A stretch of DNA of 64,000 bases from Candidatus Doudnabacteria bacterium. GTDB lineage: Bacteria > Patescibacteriota > Doudnabacteria > UBA920 > O2-02-FULL-48-8. This document shows, piece after piece, positions 1,324 to 61,111 of the stretch. Location of the stretch: contig JACPFQ010000004.1 of NCBI GenBank assembly GCA_016182875.1, forward strand, positions 259,515-323,514. Reading direction: 5' to 3'. The notes under the pieces are model-generated. The model saw nothing but the letters and a program-made list of their open reading frames with translations, was not told the DNA's origin and made no database searches. The translations under genes were made by a program, and so were the position numbers. Within the stretch, counting starts at the first letter, position 1. The number at the start of each line of letters is the position of its first letter.

Positions 1324-1563
1324 AAAAATGAAAAAATCACCTCTCTCAAGGTGAAATGTAAGTTTCCTGCTCGGGAGAGAATGGTTACTTGGCAATCTGA
1401 CTTTGACAGTTGCGGCACAGTGCCGGAATTTCACCGGACTTCCCCTACGACGTCCCGCCTGCGGCGGGAGTCGGAGTCCCGACCTTGCGTCGGGACAAAT
1501 AACCGTTATTCTTTTGTTAACTTTTGCTGAAACGATTCTAGCGCCGGCAAAAAATCTTGTCAA

Positions 1564-3877: not shown

Positions 3878-3932
3878 TCGAAATTTCCGGTCGATTCAAA
3901 GCCGCGAGCGCGGCGACTCTGCAAGTTCCGGC

Positions 3933-3965
3933 GGGACCGCCTGTGGGTCCCGCTTCTTTTTTTTG
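3933..3965 (+). terminator. rho-independent terminator (gcgggaccgcc tgt gggtcccgc followed by a T-run)
   Basis: GC hairpin followed by ttcttttttttg. Confidence 0.6.
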
Positions 3966-4058: not shown

Positions 4059-4088
4059 TTGACAGGTATCTACATATGGGGCTATAGT
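4059..4088 (+). promoter_or_regulatory. sigma70-like promoter candidate for nrdR (TTGACA-18-TATAGT)
   Basis: ttgaca at 4059-4064 and tatagt at 4083-4088. Confidence 0.35.
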
Positions 4089-4231
4089 GCTTATGTTAAT
4101 ACTAGATATTGTGTTTGAAGCCCAAAATAGGCTACCCTTCGACACAAAATCACAACTGGCTCATTCTGCAAACTAAATCGAGAGGCCCAAAGATGTCGGA
4201 ATCACGCCTATTTTTTATGTGCTAAAAAAGC

Positions 4232-4675
4232 ATGAAATGCCCTAATTGTGCCCATGACGACAGCAAGGTTTTGGACTCGCGTCCGATTAATGACGGGCTG
4301 GCCATAAGAAGAAGGCGCGAGTGTATTAAATGCGCCTTTCGGTTTTCGACCCATGAGGAAATGGAAATTCTGGATTTAACGGTAGTCAAGCGCGACGGGC
4401 GCAAGGAGCCTTACATGCGGGAAAAGATTGAGTCCGGCATCAGGAAAGCTTTCGAAAAAAGGCCGCTTAACCGCGACGACTTCCACGCCTTAATGTCGGC
4501 GATTGAGCAAGACATTCAAAAATTGGGCCGAGACGAGATTAGTTCCCGCGAAATCGGAAGCATTGTCATGCGGCGCATCAAATCCCGCGACCAGGTTGCT
4601 TACATCAGGTTTGCCTCGGTTTATCGCCAGTTCGCCGATGTGGACGAGTTTGTGAGAGAAGCAAAAAAGTTATAA
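4232..4675 (+). CDS. nrdR: transcriptional repressor NrdR
   Basis: 147 aa; N-terminal zinc ribbon (MKCPNCAHDDSKVLDSR ... RRRRECIKC) and ATP-cone; directly upstream of an RNR gene. Confidence 0.9.
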   Translation: MKCPNCAHDDSKVLDSRPINDGLAIRRRRECIKCAFRFSTHEEMEILDLTVVKRDGRKEPYMREKIESGIRKAFEKRPLNRDDFHALMSAIEQDIQKLGRDEISSREIGSIVMRRIKSRDQVAYIRFASVYRQFADVDEFVREAKKL

Positions 4676-4765
4676 TAATTCGAAACTACGAACCGGGATC
4701 CGAATAATACGAACCCGTTCGTAGATTCGCATAAACGTTCGTAATTTCGCATTATATTTAAAAAA
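4676..4765. repeat. 88-bp imperfect palindrome in the nrdR-nrdJ spacer (copy 1)
   Basis: taataattcgaaactacgaacc...cgaataatacgaacccgttcgtagattcgcata...gttcgtaatttcgcattatatt; about 85% identical to 21077-21165. Confidence 0.7.
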
Positions 4766-4787
4766 AGAATTAACTAAAGAAACCAAT

Positions 4788-7391
4788 ATGCAGTACTACG
4801 AAGTCATCCAAAAGCATCAGTTATTAACCGCGGAAGAAGAACAACGGGTCAACGACAGCTTTTCCCAGAATGCGCTTAAGATGATGAAGAAGCGGTACCT
4901 GCTCCGCGACGAGAAGGGCACGATTTTGGAAGATCCCGCGCAAATGCTGCATCGCATCGCGCATTCTTTGGCTGACGTCGAGCGGCAGTACGGCAAAAAC
5001 CAGTTTGAAATCGAGCAAATCGAACGCGACTTTTTCTATATTATCGCCAACAAGGAATTTACCCCAGCCGGCCGGACCATCACCAACGCCGGCGCTCCTT
5101 CGGCTGTGGTTGCCAACTGCATCGTGCTACCCATCAAAGATTCGATGGAAAGCATTTTCCAAACCCTCAAGGACGCCGCCCAGCTGCAGAAAGCCGGCTC
5201 AGGCCTTGGCTTTTCGTTTACCCATCTCCGCCCCGCAGGCTCAATCGTCAAAAAATCCCAAGGCATGGCTTCTGGCCCGGTTTCATTTCTGCAGGTTTAC
5301 AATCAGGCGTTCGGAGTGATTAAACAGCAGGGCCGGCATGGGGCCAACATGGCCATTCTCCGGGTGGATCATCCTGATATTTTGGACTTCATTCACAGCA
5401 AGAAAATCGAAGGCCACATCCGCAACTTCAACATTTCAGTAGGGATTACCGATGAATTTATGGAGGCGGTAATCAATAAACCCAACGAGCCCTGGGTCTG
5501 CAAATTTGACGGAGAACCCATGAAGCCGCGCCGGATTGAGCGGGATGAGCATGGCTTAATCAAGAAAATCGAAGAGCTCGACATTTCCGCCGTCCAGTTG
5601 ATGGATGAGATTGTGTATGGCGCCTGGCGGAACGGCGAGCCGGGCGTGGTCTTCCTCGATGTCGTCAACAAAACCAATGTCTTGCCGGAGCTGGGCGAAA
5701 TTGACGCCTGCAACCCCTGCGGCGAGCAGTTCCTGCATCATTATGATGTTTGCAACTTAGGCTCCATTAATTTGGCCGTCTTGGTCAAAAACGGCCAGGT
5801 CGACTTTGAGCGGCTGCGGTTTGTGACCCGGACCGCGACCAGGTTTTTGGACAATGTCGTGGATGTTTCCAACTTCCCGGTCAAAAGCGTGGATGAGATG
5901 GCCAAAAATTCCAGGCGAATCGGCTTGGGCGTCATGGGCTTTGCCGACATGCTTTATCAACTGCGCGTGCGCTACGATTCGGCCGAAGGATACAAGGCGG
6001 CGGAAGACGTCATGCGCTGCATTCAGGAAGAGGCGCACCGGACTTCACAGGCCTTGGCCGAAGAAAAAGGCGTGTTCCCGCTTTACAATCTTTCAATCTA
6101 CAAAAAACTGGGCATTCCCATGCGCAACACAATGTTGACGACAGTAGCACCCACCGGCTCGATTTCCATGTTCTTCGACACTTCCTCCGGATGCGAGCCC
6201 AACTTCGCTTTGGCCTACACTAAGCAGGACAAAGACCGCATGCAGTATCTCTATGTCAACCAATATTTGGAAAAGGAACTCAAGGAGCGAGGCTTGTACA
6301 CTAAGGAGTTGATGGACCAAATAATTCATGAAGGCTCGCTTGCCAATATTGAGCTTCCGGAGGATCTCAAAGAGACTTTCCGCGTCTCCATGGACATTTC
6401 CGCCGAGTCTCACATCCGGGTCCAGGCGGCATTCCAGAAATGGGTGGACAATTCCATTTCCAAGACGATTAATTTTCCTTACAGCGCCACGGAAACAGAT
6501 GTCCGCCAAGGCTACATTCTAGCCTGGCAGCTTGGGTGCAAAGGTTGCACGGTTTACCGCGACGGCTCCAGAGAATTGCAGGTTTTGAATATCAACAAAA
6601 ATTTGACTGCGGACGGCAAAACCAAAATCGCAGAGAGTGCCTCCCGACGCGACTTTCAGTCGGTCGGGACCCCGACTTCCGAAGGAACGTCGGGGCAAAC
6701 TGTTCCCCAGCCAAATCCAAATCCAACCCCTATGCCCCAGCCCCAACCCCAACCCATGCCGCCGCCGGCAACTCCCAAGATGTCTGCCTCGCCGGCAGGC
6801 GGGACAATCTCGCCGCGCAAGCGGCCGGATGTCATGCACGGCGCCACGTATAAAGTCTCCACCGCCTATGGCAATCTCTATGTCACAGTCAACGAAGACG
6901 AGTTTGGCCCGTTTGAAGTGTTTTCCCAGCTCGGCAAGGCCGGCGGATTTTTCGGGGCCCAAACCGAAGCGCTATGCCGGCTGATTTCCCTAAGCCTGCG
7001 AAGCGGCATTTCGATTCAGGAAGTCGTAGACCAGCTGAAAGGGATTAGAGGGCCGGATCCCGTTTTCCATAACGGCGAGCGGATTCTTTCTTTGCCGGAC
7101 GCCATTGCCTCGGTGCTGGAAGGCCACACTAAGCGAGGCCAGCAGGAGCTGACGTTCGAACTGCCTAAAGCGGCGCCAAAAGTTGAACAGAAAGCAGAGC
7201 AGGAACTGGTTTACGAAACCGTCACGAAAGAAGTGCAACCCAGCGGTATCCTTGGAACAACAGTAGTCACGCAAAAATTTTCCATCGCTAACTTAGGCCA
7301 CGCGCCAGCTTGTCCTGATTGTTCCAACATGCTGGTCATGAAAGAAGGTTGCATGTCCTGCGAAGCGTGCGGGTTTTCGAAATGTGGTTAG
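4788..7391 (+). CDS. nrdJ: ribonucleoside-diphosphate reductase, class II (adenosylcobalamin-dependent), with C-terminal Cys-rich zinc ribbon
   Basis: 867 aa; VCNLGSINL, TVYRDGSR, NSISKTINFPY motifs; no small subunit gene nearby; B12 adenosyltransferase gene adjacent; Pro-rich low-complexity insert near the C-terminus. Confidence 0.85.
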   Translation: MQYYEVIQKHQLLTAEEEQRVNDSFSQNALKMMKKRYLLRDEKGTILEDPAQMLHRIAHSLADVERQYGKNQFEIEQIERDFFYIIANKEFTPAGRTITNAGAPSAVVANCIVLPIKDSMESIFQTLKDAAQLQKAGSGLGFSFTHLRPAGSIVKKSQGMASGPVSFLQVYNQAFGVIKQQGRHGANMAILRVDHPDILDFIHSKKIEGHIRNFNISVGITDEFMEAVINKPNEPWVCKFDGEPMKPRRIERDEHGLIKKIEELDISAVQLMDEIVYGAWRNGEPGVVFLDVVNKTNVLPELGEIDACNPCGEQFLHHYDVCNLGSINLAVLVKNGQVDFERLRFVTRTATRFLDNVVDVSNFPVKSVDEMAKNSRRIGLGVMGFADMLYQLRVRYDSAEGYKAAEDVMRCIQEEAHRTSQALAEEKGVFPLYNLSIYKKLGIPMRNTMLTTVAPTGSISMFFDTSSGCEPNFALAYTKQDKDRMQYLYVNQYLEKELKERGLYTKELMDQIIHEGSLANIELPEDLKETFRVSMDISAESHIRVQAAFQKWVDNSISKTINFPYSATETDVRQGYILAWQLGCKGCTVYRDGSRELQVLNINKNLTADGKTKIAESASRRDFQSVGTPTSEGTSGQTVPQPNPNPTPMPQPQPQPMPPPATPKMSASPAGGTISPRKRPDVMHGATYKVSTAYGNLYVTVNEDEFGPFEVFSQLGKAGGFFGAQTEALCRLISLSLRSGISIQEVVDQLKGIRGPDPVFHNGERILSLPDAIASVLEGHTKRGQQELTFELPKAAPKVEQKAEQELVYETVTKEVQPSGILGTTVVTQKFSIANLGHAPACPDCSNMLVMKEGCMSCEACGFSKCG

Positions 7392-7542
7392 ACGCTCGGC
7401 ACCGATTGCAAAACTACCGGCCGTAAAATTCTGCTGAATTTTCGGCCTACGTGCTCGGGCCGTCGCCCTGCGCAAGTTAGTTTTGCAACAGTGCCTCGCA
7501 TCCACATTTCGAAATTGGAATAAAAAATAATGGAAGGCGGTG

Positions 7543-7573
7543 GAGTATCCGCCGCCTTTTAAAAAATGTTAAG
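7543..7573 (+). terminator. rho-independent terminator after nrdJ
   Basis: aaggcggtgg agtat ccgccgcctttt followed by aaaaaa. Confidence 0.6.
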
Positions 7574-7596
7574 CACGGATATAGCATAAATATAGC

Positions 7597-8124
7597 ATGC
7601 AAAAGGGTCTGGTAATCATTTATATAGGCAACGGCAAAGGCAAGACCTCAGCCGCCGCTGGCTTGGCGATTCGGGCGGCGGGAACCGGCATGAAAGTTTT
7701 GTACGCGCAATTTGTGAAGGGCGATTGGCCGAGCGGCGAGCGGAAAATTTTGGAGACCTTGCCCAATGTGACGGTTAAGCTCATGGGCCGGGGATTCGTG
7801 GGCATTTTGGGCGACCGCAAGCCTATTGAGGAACATATCCGTGCCGCAAAGCTTGGACTGAAGCTTGTGTTGAAGGCTTTGAAAAGCAAAAAATATGATC
7901 TGGTCATCGCCGACGAGGCGATTTCCGCGATTGAGTCCAAGCTTTTGACAGTAGAAGATGTTTACAAATTAATTAAACAAAAGCCGCAGAACGTCCATTT
8001 ATGCCTCACCGGCCACAAGCGAATCAAAAAATTGATAGATGCGGCGGATCTGGTGACGGAAATGAAAATGATCAAGCATCCCTATTATCTGGGCATTCTT
8101 GCGCAGAGAGGGATTGATTATTAA
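7597..8124 (+). CDS. cobO: cob(I)yrinic acid a,c-diamide / cob(I)alamin adenosyltransferase (CobO/CobA/BtuR family)
   Basis: 175 aa; P-loop GNGKGKTSAAAGLAIRAAGTG and YAQFVKG motif typical of the family. Confidence 0.8.
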   Translation: MQKGLVIIYIGNGKGKTSAAAGLAIRAAGTGMKVLYAQFVKGDWPSGERKILETLPNVTVKLMGRGFVGILGDRKPIEEHIRAAKLGLKLVLKALKSKKYDLVIADEAISAIESKLLTVEDVYKLIKQKPQNVHLCLTGHKRIKKLIDAADLVTEMKMIKHPYYLGILAQRGIDY

Positions 8125-8179
8125 TTTTTCCAAAGGGCACCTTTGCCCATCGTGAAAACCAATCAGGCAAAGGTGCCCT

Positions 8180-9139
8180 TTGCTCGGTCGACGAGGCAAT
8201 CTAATTATACTAAGAATTATTTCTATGGCCAATAAAAGCAGAGAAGTATTAACTCATACCGGAGAACCTGAAGCGCCTGATAAGATTCAAGCAATTGAAA
8301 ATGAAGTTTTAACGGATGCTGAAAAAAGAAGCCCGGAATTTTTAGCTTATTTGGGGAAGGTTGATTTTGATTTGCTGCGTAAATTATTTTTTGAAATTTT
8401 CAAAAGAATCGGTATGGATGAAACAAGTTTTAATTTTTTAGGACCAGAGAGAATTGTTGAATCTAATCATGGTACCACATACAGCGGAATTGATAATGCC
8501 ATCATTATTGCCTTAAAAAATTTAGAAGCAACAGGAAGACCAACTGAACAGGATTTTGCTCATGTATTGATCCATGAAGAAGTTCATGCAACGGCAAAAA
8601 CTATTTGCAGGGGAGAAATTGATCCAACCTGGTTAGCAGATTATTTCCCAAATAAAGTTAACTCGATTCCTGAAAATCAATTCCGAGAACTTAGGTATGG
8701 CCTTTCCCGTCTTACGCTTCCTAAAAAAAGTATTCATGGAAGGACGAGAGTATTTTATCTCTTGAATGAAGGGGTAACTGAGAAGCTGGCACGAGAAATA
8801 TTTGAAAAATACGCCAATGTTAAAGACATGGATGTAAAGGAGCATGGCAAAAAAGTGAATGATGAGAAAAACCCAGAAAATTATTATTATCCGATCCCGG
8901 TTAGATTTGTTGAAGCATTAGTTGATAGAATTGCCAAAGAAACAGGTTTAGAATCTAAAATGGTTTGGGAAAGCTTTGTGCGAGCTGCTTATACGGGAGA
9001 AGATATGGAGAATCCTGAATTGCGGCAAGCTTTCGCGGAAACCATATCAGACGATTTTCTTTCCAGGCTGTCTCGTCTTGAAATTGGTGATGAAGAACAA
9101 ATGTTGGAGCTTATAGAGGAGTTGAAAAAGAATAATTAA
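8180..9139 (+). CDS. hypothetical protein with HExxH motif (putative zincin-like); likely starts at MANKSREV, about 8225
   Basis: 319-aa ORF; HEEVH motif; no other recognisable domain. Confidence 0.45.
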   Translation: MLGRRGNLIILRIISMANKSREVLTHTGEPEAPDKIQAIENEVLTDAEKRSPEFLAYLGKVDFDLLRKLFFEIFKRIGMDETSFNFLGPERIVESNHGTTYSGIDNAIIIALKNLEATGRPTEQDFAHVLIHEEVHATAKTICRGEIDPTWLADYFPNKVNSIPENQFRELRYGLSRLTLPKKSIHGRTRVFYLLNEGVTEKLAREIFEKYANVKDMDVKEHGKKVNDEKNPENYYYPIPVRFVEALVDRIAKETGLESKMVWESFVRAAYTGEDMENPELRQAFAETISDDFLSRLSRLEIGDEEQMLELIEELKKNN

Positions 9140-9146
9140 CCTGTTA

Positions 9147-9683
9147 TTGATGCATATAATGGACGCTTTATTTGGAGATGCGGATTTTGAAACTAGCAAG
9201 GAAGCCACAGCACTAATTGGCAAAATTATTGCAGCTCATAATTTGCAAAACAGCCTGCTTTACGATTTGGGCAGCTGCTGGGGCGGATTTGTGTTCGGCA
9301 TTCAAACTGCCTGCCCGGGCCTGCAAATAGTCGGTGTAGATAAAAGCAGGATAAAGACCTGGCTCGCCAGGCTGCGCAGCCTTTACCACAGAAATCAAAA
9401 TTTTCCGAGGTTTTTAAAGGCGGATATTTTTGACGTCGATGTTTCAAAAATCGATTTGGCATTCGTTTATTTGCCTCGACCATTGTTGCCGGCCTTGGAA
9501 GCAAAATTACAGAAAGACTTAAAACCTGGGTCGCTCGCAATAACTTATCGCGTTAATTTTCCCACCTGGCGGCCGACCCAAATTTTCGTGACTGATCTTA
9601 AGAGACGAGAGAGGAACAATATTTTTATTTATAAAAAAATTAATAAAATTTTGACCTTTGACAAACTGGAATTTCGCAAATAA
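9147..9683 (+). CDS. small class I SAM-dependent methyltransferase-like protein
   Basis: 178 aa; LYDLGSCWGGFVFGI resembles SAM-binding motif I. Confidence 0.45.
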   Translation: MMHIMDALFGDADFETSKEATALIGKIIAAHNLQNSLLYDLGSCWGGFVFGIQTACPGLQIVGVDKSRIKTWLARLRSLYHRNQNFPRFLKADIFDVDVSKIDLAFVYLPRPLLPALEAKLQKDLKPGSLAITYRVNFPTWRPTQIFVTDLKRRERNNIFIYKKINKILTFDKLEFRK

Positions 9684-9709
9684 GATATTGAGGTCCTTAA
9701 ATTTAATTT

Positions 9710-10111
9710 ATGTTTAAAAATTCAGCCAAAAAGCTAGAAATATTCGTCATTATCTCAATTATTGCCATAATCGGGATTATTTATGCTTTAGCCAAACAGC
9801 CGGTGGTGGCCCCGAGAGTAAGCCAGGACCGCAACCAAACGGAGAGCATCCAGCAAGTTCCCCAAACTGCGATTCAATATCAGGGCGTAGACGGCCAAAA
9901 CGCCTTATCACTGCTTAAGGCTTATCATAATGTCGAGACAAAAGATTACGCGGGAATTGGGGAGTACGTGATCTCTATCGACGGGATTGCTCCGGACAGC
10001 AAACATTTTTGGGCGTTTTATGTGAATGAGAAACAAGCCGAGGTTGGAGCCGGGGCTTACGTCACCAAAAGCTCGGACGTAATTGAATGGAAACTGGAAG
10101 AAATTAAATAG
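9710..10111 (+). CDS. DUF4430-domain protein with N-terminal TM anchor (putative cobalamin-binding module)
   Basis: 133 aa; ALSLLKAYH...GEYVISIDGI...KHFWAFYVNEKQAEVGAGAYVTKSSDVIEWKL matches the DUF4430 pattern. Confidence 0.6.
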   Translation: MFKNSAKKLEIFVIISIIAIIGIIYALAKQPVVAPRVSQDRNQTESIQQVPQTAIQYQGVDGQNALSLLKAYHNVETKDYAGIGEYVISIDGIAPDSKHFWAFYVNEKQAEVGAGAYVTKSSDVIEWKLEEIK

Positions 10112-10131
10112 TTTGTAGTTGGTAGTTTGTA

Positions 10132-10692
10132 GTGAGTAGAAACTACAAACTACTCACTACGCACTACTCACTATCGATGCTCGCGTATTTTCTAATTTTT
10201 CTCGGAGCGTTTTTGCGAATCTTACCGCATCCGGCTAACTTCGCCCCGATTGCGGCCATTGCCTTGTTTGGCAGCGCTTATCTTAATAAAAAATTGGCGC
10301 TGATTCTGCCGCTTGTGGCCATGATTATCTCCGACTACTTCATCGGATTCGATTCGCTCAGCTCGCGTTTGACTGTTTACGGCACTTTTATTTTGGTCGG
10401 GCTTTTGGGATTCTGGCTGAGGGTCAAAAGAAGCCCGGGCCGGATTGTGGCCGCTTCCCTGGCCGGCTCCCTGATTTTTTATTTAATTACCAACTTCGCT
10501 TTTTTGTACCCTGCCGGTATGTACAGCCATGATTTGAACGGCGTGATGTCATCTTACATTAACGCTCTGCCGTTCTTTAGGAATACTTTGTTAGGCGACT
10601 TGTTTTACGTCAGCTTGTTTTTTGGAATTTATGAATTAGCATCGTACTATGTCAAGAATCATTCGAGTTCACGTTCAAACCCACGCGCATGA
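10132..10692 (+). CDS. small polytopic membrane protein (ECF S-component-like size and topology; possible vitamin transporter)
   Basis: 186 aa, about 5 hydrophobic helices; ends with TGA overlapping the next gene. Confidence 0.4.
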   Translation: MSRNYKLLTTHYSLSMLAYFLIFLGAFLRILPHPANFAPIAAIALFGSAYLNKKLALILPLVAMIISDYFIGFDSLSSRLTVYGTFILVGLLGFWLRVKRSPGRIVAASLAGSLIFYLITNFAFLYPAGMYSHDLNGVMSSYINALPFFRNTLLGDLFYVSLFFGIYELASYYVKNHSSSRSNPRA

Positions 10693-10873
10693 AGATCGGA
10701 TGGAAGAAACCGGCCTGGATGAGTACAAAATTTGGACCACAGCGATTTCGGAAAAGGGTGGGGCCAACCAAGCGGTAATCGAAATCATCGCGGATTTTTT
10801 TGACATCGTGCCCAGCAGCATCCGCATTATTTCCGGCAACAAAAGCCGGCATAAGCTCATCGAAATCCTATAA
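10649..10873 (+). CDS. DUF167 (YggU) family protein
   Basis: 74 aa; GGANQAVIEIIADFFDIVPSSIRIISGNKSRHKLIEI matches the GkANkaLikfLak...SGetSR.K family signature. Confidence 0.6.
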   Translation: MSRIIRVHVQTHAHEDRMEETGLDEYKIWTTAISEKGGANQAVIEIIADFFDIVPSSIRIISGNKSRHKLIEIL

Positions 10874-22860: not shown

Positions 22861-23277
22861 ATGGCAGAACTCTTACATAAAGAGTTATCATATATAGTGC
22901 ATGGTGCGGCTATTGAAGTTCGAAAAGATTTTGGGCCAGGACACAAAGAAAAACTATATCAAACAGCATTTGCGCAGGAACTCGACCGCCGAAGTATAAA
23001 TTTCAAACAAGAGCCAGCAGTAAATATCTATTCACCTAAGGATGGACAAAAAGTCGGGTTATATTGACCCGACTTTGTTGTTGACGGTAAAATACTTGTC
23101 GAAATGAAGGCTGAAAAATTCGTTAATCGTGATGAGATCAAAAGAATCTATGATTATTTGCGAAACAGTAAATATGAATTAGCCTATTTTATAAACTTCG
23201 CTTCACCTAAGCTCTACGTCAGACGCATCATCTTTACTAATGATAGAAAGCTTTCAATGCCCAGTAAGTTCGTGTAA
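22861..23277 (+). pseudogene. GxxExxY protein (PD-(D/E)xK-like, TIGR04256-like) with in-frame TGA at 23065-23067
   Basis: ELSYIVHGAAIEVRKDFGPGHKEKLYQTAFAQEL...VGLY[TGA]PDFVVDGKILVEMKA...AYFINFASPKLYVRRII reads through in a single frame. Confidence 0.7.
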
Positions 23278-23345
23278 ATTCGTCTATTATTAGTGTTAAT
23301 TAGTGGTTTATTTGGCTAAGTTAAGCCTTTTTTGAGGCCAAAGTC

Positions 23346-23481
23346 TTGACAGCGCCGGCAAAAAGGTATATACTTTTGAGTTCTTTTTAAAATCGCATAT
23401 TATGCCAATTTCGTAACAGGACCGAAGTTTGGCGTTAAAAATTATACAAAAACAGCTCCTGTATTACGAGCTGTTTTTGTT
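23346..23481 (+). ncRNA. candidate small RNA unit (promoter TTGACA-17-TATACT to intrinsic terminator, about 100 nt transcript)
   Basis: ttgaca at 23346, tatact at 23369; hairpin acagctc ctgtattac gagctgt plus T-run at 23452-23481; no ORF longer than 5 codons. Confidence 0.25.
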
Positions 23482-23614
23482 TCCACTATTCTGGGTACTA
23501 ACTTGATTTAGCCCGCCCGAACGTACCGTTCGGTACGGGCGGGCAGGGAAATCATTTTATTGCCCTCTTAAGCAATCAAGCCTAAGTACCCAGAATTGTG
23601 GAAGTAACAGCAAG
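23479..23614 (+). repeat. array leader repeat copy A (gtttccactattctgggtac ... gtacccagaattgtggaagtaacagcaag) with nested GC hairpin insert
   Basis: Inverted arms flank a conserved core; ends 43 bp before the ORF 23657 start. Confidence 0.7.
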
Positions 23615-23656
23615 TTCTTTTGTTTTAGCGCTTTAAATGCGCAGCGGGAGTGTGAG

Positions 23657-24013
23657 ATGAAGAATATGCGATGTATTGCGTTGTACTTCGCCTTGGTCGC
23701 CTCGCTTGGTTTCAATGTCTACTACATGTTCAAAATGTCGGCGGGCCGCGTCGGCCAGGTCATGACAAGGGTCGGCAACATCCCGAACAACGAAGTGCAG
23801 TTCGAGCTCTTCGAAGTCAGCGCTGTCGGTCAGTCGAAGATGCTCTATGGCTGTTTGGAACTCCGCGCGGTGGAGAAGACCATGGCCTACCTCGGGACCA
23901 CGTATAGCGCGGACTATACGTACTTCACCGAACAGGGGTGGGTCACCATGCTGGTCGATCCGGTTCCGGTGACGTTCGCCGGCCTTCGATACATCAACCA
24001 GCGTATCGAGTAG
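23657..24013 (+). CDS. array ORF1: small secreted/membrane protein (118 aa)
   Basis: Signal-peptide-like N-terminus; GC about 60%. Confidence 0.5.
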   Translation: MKNMRCIALYFALVASLGFNVYYMFKMSAGRVGQVMTRVGNIPNNEVQFELFEVSAVGQSKMLYGCLELRAVEKTMAYLGTTYSADYTYFTEQGWVTMLVDPVPVTFAGLRYINQRIE

Positions 24014-24248
24014 TGCCAACAACCGGCGGCGCCGGAAACTGAGGGTAAGTAGGAGGAAGTTCCCAACCGCTTGGCGGCGGTCACAAATCATTTCGGATTA
24101 CTTCATTCTAAGTAATCCACCCAGAAGTGCGCCAACACTTCTCCTGTCCTGTGAGCTAGTACTCTAATACTGCGCCGTATTAGAGTGAAGCTTAGAGGAT
24201 AGGACATTAACAAACTTCTAATTTCTAATTACTAATTTCTAAAATTTT

Positions 24249-24340
24249 GTTTCCACGATTCTGGGCGTTAGTTAGAACTAAGGATGAATTCAGTAATACT
24301 GCCTTGAAAGTTAAATTGATACCCAGAATCGTGGAAGTGA
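24249..24340 (+). repeat. array leader repeat copy D (gtttccacgattctggg ... cccagaatcgtggaagtg)
   Basis: 13-bp perfect inverted arms; ends 40 bp before ORF 24380. Confidence 0.7.
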
Positions 24341-24379
24341 AAGATTGTCAGCACCTGACAAGGTGCAAAGTGAGGCAAC

Positions 24380-24613
24380 ATGAAGGGATTAAGCGCTCTC
24401 CTCGGAATCGCGATGATACTTCTGGCTCTCCGGGTTAGCTCTGTTGTTGAAGCCAACCCTGATCCATATAGGGAGATTCTCCCCGGGGTGATTGCGGTCG
24501 CCTCGATCGTCTGTCTCGTAATGGCCGCCGCCGGCCTGCTGCTGTACGCGATCTCGCCGCCGAGTAATCGGGACAACCTGCCGCGGCAGACGTCCTGTCG
24601 GTGGCACAAGTAA
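24380..24613 (+). CDS. array ORF2: small membrane protein (77 aa, two predicted TM helices)
   Basis: Hydrophobic; GC-rich. Confidence 0.45.
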   Translation: MKGLSALLGIAMILLALRVSSVVEANPDPYREILPGVIAVASIVCLVMAAAGLLLYAISPPSNRDNLPRQTSCRWHK

Positions 24614-24738
24614 GGCCAACGACGGCACTATGAATGGAGGACACAGAATGCATTAAGTAACTCGCGAACCATCGCGAATTGAATAGTGGGGCCAGAGCAA
24701 GCCAAACCTCTGTCCCCACATCCCGTTTCCAATATTTT

Positions 24739-24833
24739 GTTTCCACTATTCTGGGTACTAACTTGATTTAGCAGGGAAATCATTTTATTGCCCTCTTAAG
24801 CAATCAAGCCTAAGCACCCAGAATTGTGGAATT
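24739..24833 (+). repeat. array leader repeat copy B
   Basis: gtttccactattctgggtactaacttgatttagcagggaaatcattttattgccctcttaagcaatcaagcctaagcacccagaattgtgga; about 95% identical to copy A without its insert. Confidence 0.75.
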
Positions 24834-25101
24834 GAAAGGGAGGATGGACATGACGCGTGCGCAGCGCAAGAGATACGAAAGGAAGATGCAGAAGAAGGCC
24901 GAACGGGGCCTGATTGCGCCGACTCTCGTGATCGTCGGCGGGCTGGCCTTGGCGCAGGTCGGTTACTCGTTGATCTCTGAGCCGTTCAGGATCATCGAGT
25001 TCATCGGCCTCGGCATCGTCGCTCTCGCCGGAGCCGATTGGTTGAGAGTATTCGTGTACATGTATCGCAACCGGCCGACCTACGAGGATCGGCTGCTCTA
25101 G
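24826..25101 (+). CDS. array ORF3: small membrane protein (probable start MDMTRAQ at 24847)
   Basis: RBS gggagg; basic N-terminus followed by two TM helices. Confidence 0.45.
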   Translation: MELKGRMDMTRAQRKRYERKMQKKAERGLIAPTLVIVGGLALAQVGYSLISEPFRIIEFIGLGIVALAGADWLRVFVYMYRNRPTYEDRLL

Positions 25102-25109
25102 GAGGGCAG

Positions 25110-25460
25110 ATGAAGCTCAGAACCATCGGTTGGGTGCTCGCGTTTGTCGCCGCGGCCATTGTCGGCGCGATCGGCGACAACATGTACATGCAGGCGCGGC
25201 TTGAAGCCCAGCTCGGCTCATGCCCCGCCACGGTCCAGGTCCTGCAAGACGCCCTCGACAACTCGGCTGTGCTGAAAGAACAGCTGACCGAGTGGTTCGT
25301 GGCCACCGACGAACAAACCAAGCCGCTTCGGCTGACCTCCTTCACTGTCAGCCAAAAGGGCGAGGAGAAGCGCTGGGTCGGAGCCGCGGTCGAGAAGGAC
25401 CTGCTGCTCTCGCCGATCGGCAGAATCGTCGGCCGTGTCGTCGGCGAAGCCGGTCCCTAG
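25110..25460 (+). CDS. array ORF4: membrane-anchored small protein (116 aa)
   Basis: RBS ggaggg 6 nt upstream of ATG 25110; N-terminal TM helix. Confidence 0.45.
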   Translation: MKLRTIGWVLAFVAAAIVGAIGDNMYMQARLEAQLGSCPATVQVLQDALDNSAVLKEQLTEWFVATDEQTKPLRLTSFTVSQKGEEKRWVGAAVEKDLLLSPIGRIVGRVVGEAGP

Positions 25461-25610
25461 CGTTCCGTGAGGCGCGATGAGTGAGAGGTCTATTCGACTC
25501 TCCTCATCCGCTCTCTTCCTAAATTTTCGAGATTCGAAGATTTTGGAAGGGAGCAATCCCGAAACGGATTTAAATACTTTAATACATTATCGTATTAAAG
25601 TGAATAGGTT

Positions 25611-25739
25611 AATAGTTAACAGCCACGAGCCAAGCTCGTGTCCGCCATTCTGGGTACTAACTTGATTTAGCAGGGAAATCAAATTATGCCCTCAAAGCAA
25701 TCAAGCCATTGCACCCAGAGTCGTGGAAGTAACAGCAAG
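25611..25739 (+). repeat. array leader repeat copy C (with upstream conserved module aatagttaacagccacgagccaagctcgtg)
   Basis: Same core as A/B; the upstream module is shared with copy G (26905-26945). Confidence 0.7.
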
Positions 25740-25776
25740 ATCTTTGATAAAAAAAGTCGCCTTGGTTAGGCGACGG

Positions 25777-26158
25777 CTAGTATAGAATATAGTTAGTAAG
25801 GCAGAACAATTCCGAGTTTGTCGGCCACTTTTTTGGCCCAAGCTTCCAGGACTTCCAGGCGTTTGCGCATGATGATATGCTCTTCCTGGAAAGTTTTGAC
25901 GATTTTAGTAAGCCCGTCAGGTTTGTTAAGAGAATGTCAATCTTTGAATCAGTATGCGCTAAATCCTCTTTAGTGACAAAGACTTCTTTCTCAGCTTCGA
26001 TTAAATTTTTGATGTCCTGGGGAGTAAGCATTTATGCTGTTAATTAATATTAAAATTTGATCTATATGTTTTTGAACCTTAGTAATATCCGCTTCCAGCT
26101 TGTCGAACTTCTCGTCCAAGTATCCCAATAATGGTTTAAAATTAATCTCAGCCATAAT
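25777..26158 (-). pseudogene. AT-rich coiled-coil protein remnant broken into at least three frames
   Basis: MAEINFKPLLGYLDEKFDKLEADITKVQ... / MLTPQDIKNLIEAEKEVFVTKEDL... / KIVKTFQEEHIIMRKRLEVLEAWAKKVADKLGIVLPY lie in different frames on the minus strand. Confidence 0.25.
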
Positions 26159-26204
26159 AGTGCATTTATTCTAGTCCTTTGAAAATTTCCAGTCAATATA
26201 TTTT

Positions 26205-26252
26205 GTTTCTACGGTTCTGGGCGTTAGAATTAGCACCCAGAATTGTGGAGGC
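26205..26252 (+). repeat. array leader repeat copy F (short form: gtttctacggttctgggcgttagaattagcacccagaattgtggaggc)
   Basis: Minimal inverted-arm version; ends 19 bp before ORF 26271. Confidence 0.65.
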
Positions 26253-26270
26253 AAACAAGCTTCTACTAAT

Positions 26271-26669
26271 ATGCAGGAGGACTGCATGACGATAAACCAT
26301 GAGTTTAAGGTCGGCGATCGTGTCAGGTTTTCTCGAGCCGGAATTGGCGACTCGATTGACCTTTCTGAGGAAAGAGTCGCTCAACTGAGACAGAAAATCG
26401 CTCAGTTGAAAGATCAGGCAGTCGAGAAAGAACTGGCTGTAGACCAGCAGATTGAACTGGAAGCGAGCATGGATGAATTGGATTACATCCTCTTGCTCAG
26501 TTCAAACTCAATCTACTGCGTAGTCGAAAAGAGAACGCAGTGTACGATTTTCGAGAACACCAGCGGTGTCTCGAAAGAAGTTTTGGCCCAGGACATCAAG
26601 CTTGAAGATGTTTTTGTGCCAAATCTCTACGACGAGCTTTTCCCGGTTGACTGGTTCGAACTCGCTTAA
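26271..26669 (+). CDS. array ORF6: hypothetical soluble protein (132 aa)
   Basis: RBS gcaggagg; no TM segment. Confidence 0.45.
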   Translation: MQEDCMTINHEFKVGDRVRFSRAGIGDSIDLSEERVAQLRQKIAQLKDQAVEKELAVDQQIELEASMDELDYILLLSSNSIYCVVEKRTQCTIFENTSGVSKEVLAQDIKLEDVFVPNLYDELFPVDWFELA

Positions 26670-26797
26670 GTAGTCCTGTTCGGAAATCTCTCAAGGTTGG
26701 TTGGGTTAGAAGCAAGCCCCGTGTGGTGTAGCCGTCGTGCAATTACCAAGAAGTGCAGTTAGGTCCAAGGTGTAAGTTGATTAATTTCTCTTCCACC

Positions 26798-26853
26798 TTT
26801 CTATTTCCCTTCAATGGGACTGATGAGTCCGTGAAATCCGGACGAAATAGAAA
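26798..26853 (+). ncRNA. candidate minimal type III hammerhead ribozyme
   Basis: Stem III tttctat/atagaaa; U17; stem I tccc-ttcaat-ggga; CUGAUGA at 26820-26826; stem II GUCCG-ugaaauc-CGGAC with G10.1:C11.1; GAAA at 26844-26847. Confidence 0.55.
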
Positions 26854-26855
26854 TT

Positions 26856-27085
26856 GTTTCCACGATTCTGAATACTTAATGTTGTAATACAGGAACTAAA
26901 TAGTTAACAGTCACGAGCTAAGCTCGTGTCCACCATTCTGGGCACTTATCTTGGTTTAGTCCCGACGCTACGGTTCCGACGCAAGGTCGGAACAGGTCGG
27001 GACAGGCAGGGAATCATATATAAATGCCCTCGAGCCTTAAGCAATCAATGCTCTAAGTACCCAGAATTGTGGAAGTAACAGCAAG
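26856..27085 (+). repeat. array leader repeat copy G (composite, 230 bp, extra nested hairpins gtcccgac...gtcgggac)
   Basis: gtttccacgattctg ... aatagttaacagtcacgagctaagctcgtgtccaccattctgggcac ... gtacccagaattgtggaagtaacagcaag; ends 18 bp before ORF 27104. Confidence 0.7.
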
Positions 27086-27103
27086 TTCTTTTGAGCGCGA
27101 AAT

Positions 27104-27439
27104 GTGCGCGTGAGGTGTGACATGCAGATTCAGGATTTTATCTTGATCGCCCTCGGGATTGCGGCGTTCCTCTCCATCACGTTGAGGGTCGCGCGAGCTC
27201 TCTGGACTCTCGGGTCCAGCGCGCGCGGTCTGCTCGGACTACTCGGGCTGGTCGTCGGTGGGTTCGTTCTTATCTGGCTCGTGACTCTCATGCCGGAATC
27301 GGTAATTCCGGTTCAGGGCAAGCGTCTCTTACAGATCGCCGGTATCCTCATGATGCTTGGCGGACTGTATCAAACAATGCAGATGAGGTTCCGGGAAGCG
27401 CATCTGCCGCCAGGTTCCAAGGAGGATGCGGCGCGGTAA
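27104..27439 (+). CDS. array ORF7: small membrane protein (111 aa, 3 TM helices)
   Basis: Hydrophobic; GC-rich. Confidence 0.45.
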   Translation: MRVRCDMQIQDFILIALGIAAFLSITLRVARALWTLGSSARGLLGLLGLVVGGFVLIWLVTLMPESVIPVQGKRLLQIAGILMMLGGLYQTMQMRFREAHLPPGSKEDAAR

Positions 27440-27658
27440 CGCGTCGTAAAAGTGCAAAGGTGGCGAGATGGTTCATACCCACGATGGGTCACTGACCGTT
27501 TTGCCTTCCTTCCCTTGGACTGCACTTATAATACTTTAACGTATTGAAGTGGAGTCCAGAGGATCGGAAGTTAAATCAGTAATAAGAAACTAGTAATAAG
27601 TAATTAGGACAAAAGATTCTAATTACTATATACTTTTTACTAATTACTAATCACTTTT

Positions 27659-27752
27659 GTTTCTAGAATGCGAGTGTAGTTGGCTTAAGTTAAGAGAGAA
27701 CATCATTTTTCAGTCTCAGAACTAACAAGCTAAATACATTCCATTGTGGACG
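27659..27752 (+). repeat. array leader repeat copy I (degenerate)
   Basis: gtttctagaatg...ccattgtggacgcg, preceded by the AT-rich taattactaat motif as in copy D. Confidence 0.4.
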
Positions 27753-27769
27753 CGAATTGAGGTGATGAG

Positions 27770-27976
27770 GTGACTATGAAGAACCCATTGTTCAAACCCG
27801 GAGATCGGTGCACGTTCACCAACCGCAGCGGGAATAGCGCACGCAGCGGTGAAAAATGCACGGTGGTCACTGTGGTTCCGCCGGATGAGCATGATGGCGG
27901 TGTCGCCTACATCGTCGAGTTCGAAAACGGCCACAGGATATCAGTTCATGAAGAAGAGCTCATGCAGACGCATTGA
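27770..27976 (+). CDS. array ORF8: small soluble protein (68 aa)
   Basis: ORF immediately 3' of the degenerate repeat. Confidence 0.4.
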   Translation: MTMKNPLFKPGDRCTFTNRSGNSARSGEKCTVVTVVPPDEHDGGVAYIVEFENGHRISVHEEELMQTH

Positions 27977-28299
27977 GGACTAACATGCATATCGAGATTG
28001 ATTCGTCCTGGAAGTTCCGGTTGCTCCTCGGTGGTTTGCTCCTGGCGATTTACTTCCTCTGGGAGTACGTCGCAAGCCAGCCGCACCACCTCGTCATCAA
28101 GTAGGAGGATTCCTTCCAGCCAGGAAAGCAAGATTTTCCAATCAGCTCACCTTCACCTGGCTTATCCAGCAGGATTGACTCAAGATTAATCCTGCTCCTG
28201 CCCTTGCGCTTAAAACTATATTGAGCTTGAGGGCGGGTCAGTGGTATAATATAGTGTTAAAGCACTTTTATATAATAAAGTCTTTGAGACTTTGGATAC

Positions 28300-28332
28300 T
28301 TAGTTGGTTAAGCGGCCAGAATCGTGGAGGCT
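28300..28332 (+). repeat. array leader repeat copy H (3' arm only: gccagaatcgtggaggc)
   Basis: Partial match to the conserved 3' arm; 18 bp before ORF 28351. Confidence 0.35.
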
Positions 28333-28350
28333 TAACCAAAGGAGGTTGCG

Positions 28351-28614
28351 ATGCCTGAGATCATCGGCTCAGCCGAAGCTGCCAGTTTGACCACCATAGG
28401 CGCGCTGCTTTTCATCCGCTTTGTGTTCGTTGGCCTCTGCCATGTCGAAGACAAAGCCCGCTCCTTCAGCCGACGGGTCTACGGACAGGAAGAAGCGTCC
28501 GAAATCCCGGCAAGCGTCACTGCTCCCGCCGGAAAGATCGTTTCTTTCCCTGCCATCGCCGCGCCCGCACCAATCTCGCGAGAGCGAGAAAAGCAGCCCC
28601 CAATTGCTGCGTAG
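28351..28614 (+). CDS. array ORF9: small membrane protein (87 aa)
   Basis: RBS aaaggagg; N-terminal TM helix. Confidence 0.4.
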   Translation: MPEIIGSAEAASLTTIGALLFIRFVFVGLCHVEDKARSFSRRVYGQEEASEIPASVTAPAGKIVSFPAIAAPAPISREREKQPPIAA

Positions 28615-28743
28615 GCGCTACCAAGAAGGTGGTTCGCTTCTCTAGAGCCACCTTCCCCTCCTTATGTGTTTGACCAAAAGGTCGAATGCATAAGGAGGGA
28701 TATATTTCCGCCCTCGTGTCGTTAACCTCTTAGAGAGGAGAGT

Positions 28744-28938
28744 ATGCAGAAGAAGGCTACCGTCGGCGTGGAATCGTCCGTCGCAAGGCCTGTCGTTCGC
28801 ATCCGTTATTGGTGGGACCCGTGGTCGTTGCTTCCCCCAATGTCTGAAAAGACACACAGGCGGGTATGCAACACCCTCATGGTAATCGCCGCGGCCATTT
28901 TGTTAACATGGGTCGTCGGCGGATTCCTCTTCGAGTAA
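28744..28938 (+). CDS. array ORF10: small membrane protein (64 aa)
   Basis: RBS gagaggagag; C-terminal TM helix. Confidence 0.4.
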   Translation: MQKKATVGVESSVARPVVRIRYWWDPWSLLPPMSEKTHRRVCNTLMVIAAAILLTWVVGGFLFE

Positions 28939-29012
28939 TCCCTTCCCCGGGCGCTTCCCAGCGCGCCCAAGTACTTATACAAAAACCAACTTTATTAGCA
29001 AGGGGGGCTCCA

Positions 29013-29204
29013 ATGGAGCACGAAGCGCCTGACCTCTTGGTCGTCTTGAGGGTCTGCGCACCGATCGGCGTCGCCTTCGGCATTTATGGCATCATCAGCA
29101 ACTTGCCAATGATGCGAGAAGTGGCGACGATCTGTTTGCTCATATCGCTTGCGGTGTGGGCAGGGCCAATCGTGCGACGCATCAAGCGGAGGGGGGTGGG
29201 CTAG
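29013..29204 (+). CDS. array ORF11: small membrane protein (63 aa; internal start of track ORF 28866..29204)
   Basis: RBS gggggg then ATG at 29013; two TM helices. Confidence 0.4.
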   Translation: MEHEAPDLLVVLRVCAPIGVAFGIYGIISNLPMMREVATICLLISLAVWAGPIVRRIKRRGVG

Positions 29205-29393
29205 TACGGCCATTCCTCCTCCGGAAGTTTTCTTTAGATATCTGCCGGCGAATCTGACAAATTTTCTTTGAAGATTTATCAGATCTCCTGTTCGCCGGCA
29301 GATACTTGAAGAAAACCAAGCGCCTTTGACGAGGCGCTCTTTTTATGCTAAAGTTTTCAGGCAACTATCAACTATTAACTATAACCTAATTCG

Positions 29394-29591
29394 ATGGCTG
29401 TACCAAAAAAGCATAAAACTAGATCGGGCCGCAATCAACGGCGGGCTCATGACTTTTTGATTAAGACCAACTTGGCAGTTTGCAGCAACTGCAAATACCC
29501 CGTGATGCCGCATGAGGTTTGCCAGAACTGCGGATACTACAAAGGACGGCAGGTTTTGAGGATCAAGGCAAAAACTAAGGCATCGAAATAA
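29394..29591 (+). CDS. rpmF: 50S ribosomal protein L32
   Basis: 65 aa; MAVPKKHKTRSGRNQRRAHD...CSNC...CQNCGYYKG. Confidence 0.85.
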   Translation: MAVPKKHKTRSGRNQRRAHDFLIKTNLAVCSNCKYPVMPHEVCQNCGYYKGRQVLRIKAKTKASK

Positions 29592-29682
29592 TTTTAAATT
29601 TCGAGTTTTGAATTTCGAGTGAATTTTAGAATTTATAATAATTCGAAATTGAATCAAAATTCAAAATTATGAATTCATAATT

Positions 29683-56567: not shown

Positions 56568-56657
56568 TGCAAAAATCAAAGCTCAAAAATCAAAATGTAA
56601 TTAAAAATGCAAAGAGAATAATTTTTAATTTTGCTTTGTCATTTTGCATTTTGACTT

Positions 56658-57893: not shown

Positions 57894-58276
57894 AAAATAA
57901 CAGGCAAGCCGGTTTATCTTTGATGGAAGTGGTTATAAGCATGGCCATGATACTGGTTCTTTTTATTTTGTATATCGCGGCGCAAAACACGACGATTCAC
58001 ACAAGGAAACTACGCTATGAAAATTTGGCTTACCATGCGGCCAACAAAAAAATGGAAGAACTTCGGGCGACGGCTTTTAATTCACTTCCCGTCTCGGGCG
58101 CCATTTCCGACTCAATGCTTGGCCAAATTCCATCCGGGGCCGGCAGTTTTACGGTCAATGACTACGCCGGCTTCAGCGGTTTGAAGGAAGTTATCGTGAC
58201 TGTAACTTGGAATGACGGCATTAGCAAGCAGGTCGTTTTGAAAACTTTAGCTGGGAGCGGAGGAATTAATCCATGA
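57890..58276 (+). CDS. prepilin-type N-terminal cleavage/methylation domain protein (pseudopilin)
   Basis: 128 aa; QAGLSLMEVVISMAMILVLFI class III signal; overlaps the pilC stop. Confidence 0.7.
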   Translation: MKNNRQAGLSLMEVVISMAMILVLFILYIAAQNTTIHTRKLRYENLAYHAANKKMEELRATAFNSLPVSGAISDSMLGQIPSGAGSFTVNDYAGFSGLKEVIVTVTWNDGISKQVVLKTLAGSGGINP

Positions 58277-58917: not shown

Positions 58918-58921
58918 GGTC

Positions 58922-60316: not shown

Positions 60317-60321
60317 TCCAC

Positions 60322-60397: not shown

Positions 60398-60410
60398 ATA
60401 ATTAAAGCGT

Positions 60411-61070: not shown

Positions 61071-61111
61071 GCCTGATTTCGGAAAACAAGCGCAACGTCA
61101 GAGAGGCGATT

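Follow-up and report, generated by a model that had tools for sequence, protein, structure and literature searches.

A probable vitamin B12 salvage cluster built around a class II ribonucleotide reductase in Candidatus Doudnabacteria, with DUF4430 and DUF6580 proteins proposed to capture and import corrinoid

The prediction behind the cbrS-cbrT system for vitamin B12 in Lactobacillales, in which CbrT belongs to the energy-coupling factor (ECF) transporter ECF-CbrT, is reportedly that of Rodionov in 2009. In L. delbrueckii, CbrT is encoded in an nrdJ-cbrS-cbrT-pduO cluster (Santos et al. 2018, PMC5997447), and a structure of ECF-CbrT is available (PDB 6FNP). The BtuM protein of Proteobacteria is a solitary S-component-like B12 transporter and decyanase that co-localises with btuR and has no ECF module (Rempel et al. 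2018, PMC6072759; PDB 6FFV); it carries an invariant cobalt-ligating Cys, which is C80 in T. denitrificans (PMC6072759). With regard to capture of the vitamin outside the cell, bacterial homologs have been described as transcobalamin-type SLBB domains and predicted to be B12 scavengers where biosynthesis is lacking, and SLBB genes have been linked to CbiO/CbiQ, that is, to an ECF module (Burroughs et al. 2007, PMC1796856). The isolated beta domain of transcobalamin (TC) binds cyanocobalamin (CNCbl) and cobinamide (Cbi) on its own (PMC5599065). We describe here a gene cluster in a 64,000-nt stretch of DNA from Candidatus Doudnabacteria (assembly GCA_016182875.1, contig JACPFQ010000004.1, positions 259,515-323,514, forward strand; the whole stretch is hereafter called the window), which we consider, with a probability of roughly 0.8, to be a vitamin B12 (corrinoid) salvage set built around a B12-dependent ribonucleotide reductase (RNR). 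We also judge it quite likely that capture and import of the corrinoid are carried out by 2 products of the cluster, a DUF4430 protein and a DUF6580 membrane protein.

Gene families were assigned by means of an open reading frame (ORF) listing and hidden Markov model (HMM) scans (Pfam, NCBIfam) of the window ORFs. The order observed on the + strand is nrdR, nrdJ, cobO, a gene for an HExxH protein, a methyltransferase gene, the DUF4430 gene, the DUF6580 gene, a DUF167 gene and then hisS. The names carried by homologs agree with an origin in Candidatus Doudnabacteria, which belong to the CPR/Patescibacteria. An earlier, sequence-only reading of this DNA had placed the same genes, and both its positions on the + strand and its family assignments held in our ORF listing and HMM scans. 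That reading had also proposed a compact salvage module for capture, import, adenosylation and use of B12, and this proposal, which was favoured by every one of its suggested checks that could be run, gained support from the predicted folds of the 2 uptake proteins, from a profile match to CbrT, from riboswitches in 6 related loci and from the parallel with the Lactobacillus cluster. The nrdJ product, which scored above the cut-off of the equivalog HMM TIGR02504, is an adenosylcobalamin (AdoCbl)-dependent class II RNR, and NrdJ is the predicted consumer of the AdoCbl cofactor in the cluster. CobO, with the P-loop GNGKGKTS, scored 167.5 bits against TIGR00708, marginally below the 167.75 cut-off; judging from its family, it would make AdoCbl from imported corrinoid. 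Among the window ORFs scanned, we found no cob, cbi, btu or ECF-module gene, no homolog of BtuC, BtuD or BtuF, and no ABC ATPase or EcfT. The earlier statement that B12 biosynthesis genes are missing thus stands for these ORFs, and it reaches no further than the 64 kb.

The DUF4430 protein consists of a short basic N-terminus, a hydrophobic segment of about 18 residues (residues 12-28, ending in ALA, then K), a disordered linker and a C-terminal domain. It had been called membrane-anchored; the hydrophobic segment is present as expected, and could be either a signal-anchor or a cleavable signal, while several homologs bear lipoboxes instead. The AlphaFold2 (AF2) model of the C-terminal domain had a predicted local distance difference test score (pLDDT) of >90, and its 19 best PDB matches were TC, haptocorrin (HC), intrinsic factor (IF) and the bacterial DUF4430 structure 3U7Z, with no others among them. 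Human TC's beta domain (5NO0) superposed on the model at 1.3 A over 75 columns. A profile made from 34 DUF4430 homologs also found transcobalamin-1 by sequence (E 0.004; PDB entries matched, 4KKI and 5NO0), and the invariant Trp of the family, W101 in the window protein, aligns with the haptocorrin Trp. The Pfam search for DUF4430 was likewise positive, at 55.8 bits against a cut-off of 23.8, and the kinship to eukaryotic cobalamin-binding proteins that the sequence-only reading had brought up is borne out by these comparisons. In terms of the model, the domain is a predicted transcobalamin-beta-type beta-grasp (SLBB). We propose that the DUF4430 protein is an extracytoplasmic corrinoid-capture protein and the counterpart of CbrS; that it binds cobalamin is suggested by the fold, by the riboswitch context described below, and by the binding of Cbl and Cbi to the isolated TC beta domain.

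Related loci were collected by a pattern scan limited to one genome per species, which gave 48 loci, and 4 loci from distant representatives were added; the scan was built on a closer alignment, so that the sample is biased to relatives sharing 2 motifs. DUF4430 neighbours were counted by searching translated ORFs with HMMs from our own alignments, in the 50 distinct loci that had sufficient upstream sequence. In 47 of the 50 loci, we observed a DUF4430 domain that is encoded on the same strand as DUF6580 and ends upstream of it by no more than 300 nt, and the 2 genes often abut or overlap. In a 48th locus, L033, DUF4430 lies 1.2 kb upstream of DUF6580, with a gene for a secreted alpha/alpha-toroid protein between them. 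Of the loci, 28 have nrdJ upstream, and 26 have cobO nearby on the same strand. The DUF4430-DUF6580 arrangement is far beyond chance. Representatives at 37-40% identity showed the same neighbourhood pattern, and one of these (L064, 40% identity) has a clean 5-gene form, nrdR-nrdJ-cobO-DUF4430-DUF6580.

The adjacency could be supposed to reflect no more than a gene order inherited within Doudnabacteria, with DUF4430 and DUF6580 serving an unrelated envelope function, as one lineage accounts for about half of the loci and its synteny reaches DUF167 and hisS, which surely are unrelated to B12. However, the pair was also present in more than 20 loci whose flanking genes differ entirely, in metagenome-assembled genomes labelled Saccharibacteria, Woesebacteria, Nomurabacteria, Gammaproteobacteria and Nanoarchaeia; it recurs with riboswitches; and in Lactobacillales the same logic has evolved around another S-component family. 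An explanation by inherited gene order is largely refuted by these observations, and we give it hardly any weight.

The secreted alpha/alpha-toroid gene, which is squalene-cyclase/prenyltransferase-like, adjoins DUF4430 in 2 loci (L033:2094-3917 and L034:2433-4412), and in L033 it lies behind a riboswitch. The toroid and DUF4430 proteins of these loci are a split bacterial counterpart of the 2-domain animal transcobalamin.

Rfam scans over 514 kb of related loci revealed 7 cobalamin-clan riboswitches, 6 of which lie 20-170 nt to the 5' side of DUF4430 in a DUF4430-DUF6580 pair (L032, L033, L036, L039, L040 and L062). All 6 are on the coding strand, and in L032 the riboswitch is located between nrdJ and DUF4430. 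Of the arguments for a corrinoid being what the pair handles, this position is, taken singly, the strongest. The seventh riboswitch (L061:1142-1367, + strand, Cobalamin, 91.6 bits) is found 68 nt downstream of a DUF6580 gene without a DUF4430 partner; the contig ends before the gene that it regulates. The elements thus stand directly 5' of the pair in 6 independent loci; the window has none before its pair, and a separate AdoCbl-II element elsewhere.

These riboswitches also bear on whether the DUF4430-DUF6580 pair might import a different substance, for instance heme, another tetrapyrrole or cobalt, its link to nrdJ and cobO then being indirect. There are precedents for such a role: an ECF system of L. 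sakei with transcobalamin-alpha-like and beta-like proteins has been proposed for heme uptake (bioRxiv 10.1101/864751), SLBB domains bind diverse soluble ligands (PMC1796856), and the S-component fold is not substrate-specific. Yet an AdoCbl/cobalamin riboswitch stands directly 5' of the pair in 6 loci, in 26-28 loci the pair is set among genes for an AdoCbl-dependent enzyme and for a corrinoid adenosyltransferase, and the sole PDB sequence match of the DUF6580 profile is to CbrT, which is B12-specific. By these criteria, a ligand other than a corrinoid appears improbable.

The DUF6580 protein had been described as a 186-aa, roughly 5-TM protein of ECF S-component size. Nearly all DUF6580 homologs start at a Met equivalent to ATG 10177, and we have therefore taken the protein as 171 aa long, with ATG 10177 as its likely start. 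The AF2 model (pLDDT 89.5, predicted template-modelling score 0.82) contained 6 long membrane helices plus one short helix. When this model was compared with known structures by Foldseek, TmRibU was found first (template-modelling (TM) score 0.60, probability 1.00), followed by FolT and PanT, with TM scores ranging from 0.55 to 0.60. The model thus points to a 6-helix ECF S-component fold, in agreement with the type of protein that had been suggested, although the length and helix number given earlier have to be revised.

In sequence searches, the single window protein matched no PDB sequence, and no BtuM chain was found at E up to 10. A profile built from 41 diverse DUF6580 members matched one PDB chain only, 6FNP_A (E 0.0013); the matched stretch, when used as a query, recovered 100%-identical ECF S-component proteins and a CbrT-type locus, which identifies it as CbrT of L. 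delbrueckii ECF-CbrT. Alignment of DUF6580 with CbrT homologs by hhalign gave an E value of 1.2e-4 and a probability of 55.6% over 65 columns, covering helices 1-3. The CbrT profile in this comparison was made from 3 clean sequences, the other matches to the CbrT fragment being mostly truncated or frameshifted variants. The motifs R..P.PN..P and S[DN]..[IL]GF are common to both families. In Pfam (E up to 0.01), the window protein matched PF20221 only, and the CbrT fragment matched PF12822 and PF07155; since CbrT falls in PF12822 and not in PF20221, the kinship between DUF6580 and CbrT is remote. We rejected DUF6580 as a member of the CbrT family PF12822 on this basis, and as a member of BtuM because it has no invariant Cys and gave no sequence match at E up to 10, whether a single sequence or the profile was used. 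The DUF6580 protein accordingly belongs to neither of the 2 families, CbrT and BtuM, that the sequence-only reading had named for a check. The DUF6580 family itself is large (4,481 clusters at 50% identity, E up to 0.001).

The invariant residues of DUF6580 are R14, P17, H18, N21, D53, N106, Y116 and P132, all of which are located in the loops after helices 1, 3 and 5 (L1, L3 and L5). The loops after helices 2 and 4 are basic, as is the C-terminus, which by the positive-inside rule would place them on the cytoplasmic side, so that the conserved loops would face outward. In the model, the invariant residues cluster in these outward loops, where ECF S-components have their ligand pocket. An AxxxA motif in helix 1 is the EcfT docking motif of S-components. 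We observed that this motif (small-xxx-small) is not conserved in DUF6580: columns 1-13 are variable across the 41 representatives, and column 10 alone is consistently small (A/G in 33/41), without a conserved partner 4 residues off. There is also no invariant Cys in the family, and for that reason its chemistry does not appear to be BtuM-like; column 126 is Cys in 23/41 representatives and Ser in 16/41, the window protein having S126. As the cobalt ligand of BtuM is its invariant Cys, the part of the DUF6580 family with Cys at column 126 might do similar chemistry.

Possibly, DUF6580 is not a translocator, and serves instead as an anchor or receptor for DUF4430, or as a corrinoid-processing protein (for example in decyanation or reduction), import being left to another system. 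BtuM, which has the same fold, does carry out decyanation at its binding site (PMC6072759), Cys is frequent at column 126, and no energising component is among the families that recur in the scanned neighbourhoods. On the other hand, no other transporter recurs in these neighbourhoods, the characterised proteins of S-component fold (CbrT, BtuM and solitary BioY) are transporters (PMC5997447, PMC6072759), and column 126 of the window protein is occupied by Ser and not by Cys. We regard such a role without transport as unlikely, to much the same degree as a ligand other than corrinoid, and we propose that DUF6580 is a corrinoid-binding translocator.

In the pathway that we envisage, the DUF4430 protein would be exported, after which it would either stay on the membrane by means of its N-terminal hydrophobic segment or be set free by cleavage of the signal, and its transcobalamin-beta-like domain would capture cobalamin or cobinamide outside the cell. 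The corrinoid would then be passed to DUF6580, the 6-helix S-component-like membrane protein, which would move it through the membrane, the toppling that S-components undergo being the most plausible mechanism. CobO would adenosylate the corrinoid after its reduction to Co(I), and would in this way also trap it in the cytoplasm, and NrdJ would use the resulting AdoCbl for deoxyribonucleotide synthesis. We infer the binding of B12 by DUF4430, its handover to DUF6580, and its transport by DUF6580 from the comparisons presented above.

Several of our observations weigh against this interpretation. The Rfam scan of the window (E up to 1) showed no riboswitch to the 5' side of nrdR or DUF4430, and 13 sister loci with the nrdR-nrdJ-cobO arrangement were likewise negative. 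The Doudnabacteria synteny is common to about half of the loci, and many of the 50 share ancestry, so that the counts given above are not independent of each other. Two distant DUF6580 genes, at 30-42% identity (L045 from Pseudolabrys and L051 from Angelobacter), have neither DUF4430 nor B12 context, their neighbours including a phosphate transporter, YdjM, diacylglycerol kinase and DNA ligase; the DUF6580 family is therefore perhaps not uniformly B12-specific. An S-component fold says nothing of substrate, the structures nearest to the model by Foldseek were RibU and FolT and not CbrT or BtuM, and the sequence link to CbrT is weak at the hhalign probability obtained, and is confined to the N-terminal half. 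The term DUF6580 was not mentioned in the literature searched, and we know of no experiments on any DUF6580 protein or any bacterial DUF4430 protein. A cob(II)alamin reductase, which is needed by a CobA-type enzyme, was not identified. Lastly, no ECF module was found near any locus, and CbiQ was not among the families matched by at least 2 of 147 neighbouring ORFs from 26 diverse loci.

This last observation bears on the energy source for uptake. Shared (Group II) ECF modules are normally encoded away from S-component genes. We see roughly even odds between a CbrT-like mode, in which DUF6580 docks on a shared ECF ATPase module whose genes lie elsewhere, and a BtuM-like mode, in which it works alone with metabolic trapping. 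It is a tentative and somewhat doubtful proposition that DUF4430 and DUF6580 constitute a self-sufficient, ATPase-free B12 uptake system, in which a solitary S-component-like permease would be supplied by a tethered binding protein of transcobalamin type, and net uptake would be driven by CobO adenosylation and NrdJ binding. If true, the pair would be the first S-component-type transporter that needs an extracytoplasmic binding protein and is without an ECF module, and it could be the main B12 route, from hosts or from the community, for many members of the candidate phyla radiation (CPR, Patescibacteria). The literature that we searched on ECF transporters in CPR and on B12 in Patescibacteria yielded nothing useful.

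The minimal genomes of CPR bacteria depend on other cells, and in the cluster described here acquisition and activation of B12 are wired into the RNR operon, which suggests that DNA-precursor synthesis in these organisms relies on scavenged B12. DUF6580, a large uncharacterised family, is given a specific and testable function, namely corrinoid import together with a DUF4430 capture protein, and the question is sharpened of whether S-component-type proteins can dispense with an ECF ATPase module and work together with a binding protein outside the cell.

Coordinates of the genes and of the putative control elements in and around the cluster are collected in Table 1.

Table 1. Genes and candidate regulatory features of the salvage cluster and its surroundings, in window positions
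Feature	Position	Strand	Basis or description
AdoCbl-II riboswitch aptamer	1391-1445	-	Rfam 42.8 bits (gathering score 36.5); 2.8 kb from nrdR
Terminator-like hairpin with T-run	3930-3954	+	9-bp stem, 7 GC pairs, T8 tail
Sigma-70-type promoter-like site, upstream of nrdR	4059-4088	+	TTGACA, 18 nt spacer, TATAGT; 11/12 consensus matches
Candidate NrdR box ATACTAGATATTGTGT	4099-4114	+	14/16 consensus; best in the whole 64 kb window
nrdR	4232-4675	+	TIGR00244 180.8 bits (cut-off 124.65); RNR-gene transcriptional repressor, Zn-ribbon and ATP-cone
nrdJ	4788-7391	+	TIGR02504 658.9 bits (cut-off 399.95); PF02867; C-terminal TSCPD (PF12637)
cobO (CobA/CobO/BtuR-type ATP:cob(I)alamin adenosyltransferase)	7597-8124	+	PF02572 198.9 bits, profile positions 1-172/172
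HExxH protein gene	8180-9139	+	No family match
Small class I S-adenosylmethionine (SAM) methyltransferase gene	9147-9683	+	Weakly similar to archaeal protein-lysine methyltransferases, the nearest of solved structure (5FA8, E 1.1e-7)
Second promoter-like site, just 5' of DUF4430 gene	9658-9686	+	TTGACA, 17 nt spacer, TAAGAT; weaker consensus match
DUF4430 gene	9710-10111	+	PF14478 55.8 bits (cut-off 23.8)
RNA hairpin in DUF4430/DUF6580 spacer	10110-10181	+	Covers ATG 10177; -30.2 kcal/mol, z -5.1
DUF6580 gene	10177-10692 (alternative GTG start 10132)	+	PF20221 163 bits (cut-off 27), profile positions 8-157/162
DUF167/YggU gene	10649-10873	+	Overlaps 3' end of DUF6580 gene by 44 nt

The terminator-like hairpin would close the upstream unit and mark the 5' boundary of the cluster. 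The candidate NrdR box begins 11 nt past the -10 hexamer of the promoter-like site upstream of nrdR; the consensus that we used for it is said to be that of Rodionov and Gelfand from 2005. Comparable boxes were seen to the 5' side of nrdR in most related loci, some of them as pairs 33 bp apart. No convincing or strong terminator was found on the + strand between nrdR and hisS. Given a promoter-like site and the best NrdR box of the window 5' of nrdR, and no strong terminator within, the whole set appears in this genome to be one NrdR-controlled transcription unit, co-transcription and NrdR control being what the signals in the DNA suggest. The uptake pair may have an internal promoter in the second promoter-like site. 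The 65-nt spacer that separates the DUF4430 gene from that of DUF6580 is filled by the RNA hairpin, and none of 200 shuffled sequences folded equally well. Such a spacer is absent in most other loci, where the 2 genes abut or overlap; the hairpin may set an expression ratio or stabilise the mRNA.

The 2 genes between cobO and DUF4430 had been taken as unexplained members of the module. We found no Pfam, NCBIfam, PHROG or PDB sequence match for the HExxH protein, and this gene and the methyltransferase gene occurred only in contigs of the same strain (L001 and L054), being absent from all other loci. The GC content of the stretch from 8180 to 9683 is 0.40, as compared with about 0.49 in the flanks. 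In 8 sister loci (L008, L010, L015, L018, L021, L025, L026 and L027), a gene with a CYTH domain lies between cobO and DUF4430 (for example L010:4974-5573), and in L006 and L064 cobO abuts DUF4430 directly. Since the 2 genes are confined to this strain, have a lower GC content, and are replaced in relatives by another gene or by none, we regard them as inserts and have ruled them out as parts of the module. CYTH is a triphosphate-tunnel domain, and the window has no CYTH gene. CobA-type adenosyltransferases release triphosphate, so the CYTH protein of the sister loci may be a dedicated triphosphatase partner of CobO. The DUF167 gene follows DUF6580 in most loci of the Doudnabacteria type (nrdJ-cobO) and in 0 loci outside that synteny group; with its synteny confined to Doudnabacteria it was rejected as a member, and it is probably no part of the B12 module.

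The AdoCbl-II riboswitch of the window lies outside the cluster, and its presence means that this genome senses AdoCbl. It is followed by a stem plus T-run and then by a long, very acidic ORF (ATG 1323 to 1, - strand) of at least 441 aa, which runs off the window. No Pfam, PHROG or PDB sequence match was found for this ORF, nor any relative in a metagenome scan. From its position, the acidic ORF is predicted to be controlled by the riboswitch, the reason for such control being unexplained.

Elsewhere in the window, the ORFs on the 2 strands of the region from 22900 to 29600 are all small (70-152 aa), and the 9 largest of them had no Pfam match. At 46882-54015 (+) lies the gene for a surface protein of 2377 aa, which contains CarboxypepD_reg, Big_5 and fn3 repeats. 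Type IV pilus genes come next and, for a PilB-type ATPase, PilC, pilins, PilM and PilN, take up 54819-62560 (+); PilM is split (60411-61070 and 61112-61429), which suggests a frameshift or a 2-part gene.

When compared with systems of known function, the window pair would resemble BtuFCD, the classical ABC importer for B12 that depends on a binding protein, in combining an extracytoplasmic B12-binding protein with a membrane translocator, but the folds are unrelated and the window cluster has no ATPase gene. The DUF4430 protein shares with TC, IF, HC and the bacterial SLBB proteins the beta-grasp of the beta domain, a conserved aromatic residue, and an extracytoplasmic location. It differs from TC, IF and HC in that it consists of the beta domain only, and no alpha/alpha-toroid gene is located nearby. 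In contrast to the loci of Burroughs et al. (2007), CbiO/CbiQ are absent from the neighbourhoods examined here, and the partner is DUF6580. BtuM resembles DUF6580 in being a small protein of 6-helix S-component fold with a co-localised CobA/BtuR-type adenosyltransferase, which would trap the vitamin metabolically, and no ECF module nearby. The 2 differ in that DUF6580 has no counterpart of the invariant cobalt-ligating Cys of BtuM, the window protein having Ser at the Cys-rich column, and in that BtuM has no DUF4430 partner and works behind the outer-membrane receptor BtuB.

The Lactobacillales cluster offers the closest parallel, in that the same 4 roles (class II RNR, DUF4430, a 6-helix protein of S-component type, and an adenosyltransferase) are gathered in one cluster. 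A CbrT-type locus (L055) in our set encodes a class II RNR, 2 DUF4430 proteins, CbrT (PF12822) and a PduO-type adenosyltransferase, in this order; when it is matched to the nrdJ-cbrS-cbrT-pduO cluster, cbrS corresponds to DUF4430. The window DUF4430 protein matched the 2 DUF4430 proteins of this locus by BLASTP at E 8e-7 and 3e-5. No riboswitch was found in the CbrT-type locus, a feature that the Lactobacillales cluster has in common with that of the window. Three of the roles, however, are filled by different or remotely related families, with NrdJ in place of RTPR, CobA in place of PduO, and DUF6580 in place of CbrT. DUF6580 (PF20221) and CbrT (PF12822) show marginal homology, and helix 1 of DUF6580 lacks the conserved AxxxA. 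In addition, the window NrdJ has a TSCPD domain and is accompanied by nrdR, there is one DUF4430 gene rather than 2, and the host is a CPR bacterium, with no ECF-module gene found among the window ORFs scanned. In the aggregate, the window cluster is probably a B12 salvage set of the cbrS-cbrT type attached to a class II RNR, in which DUF6580 replaces CbrT and CobA replaces PduO.

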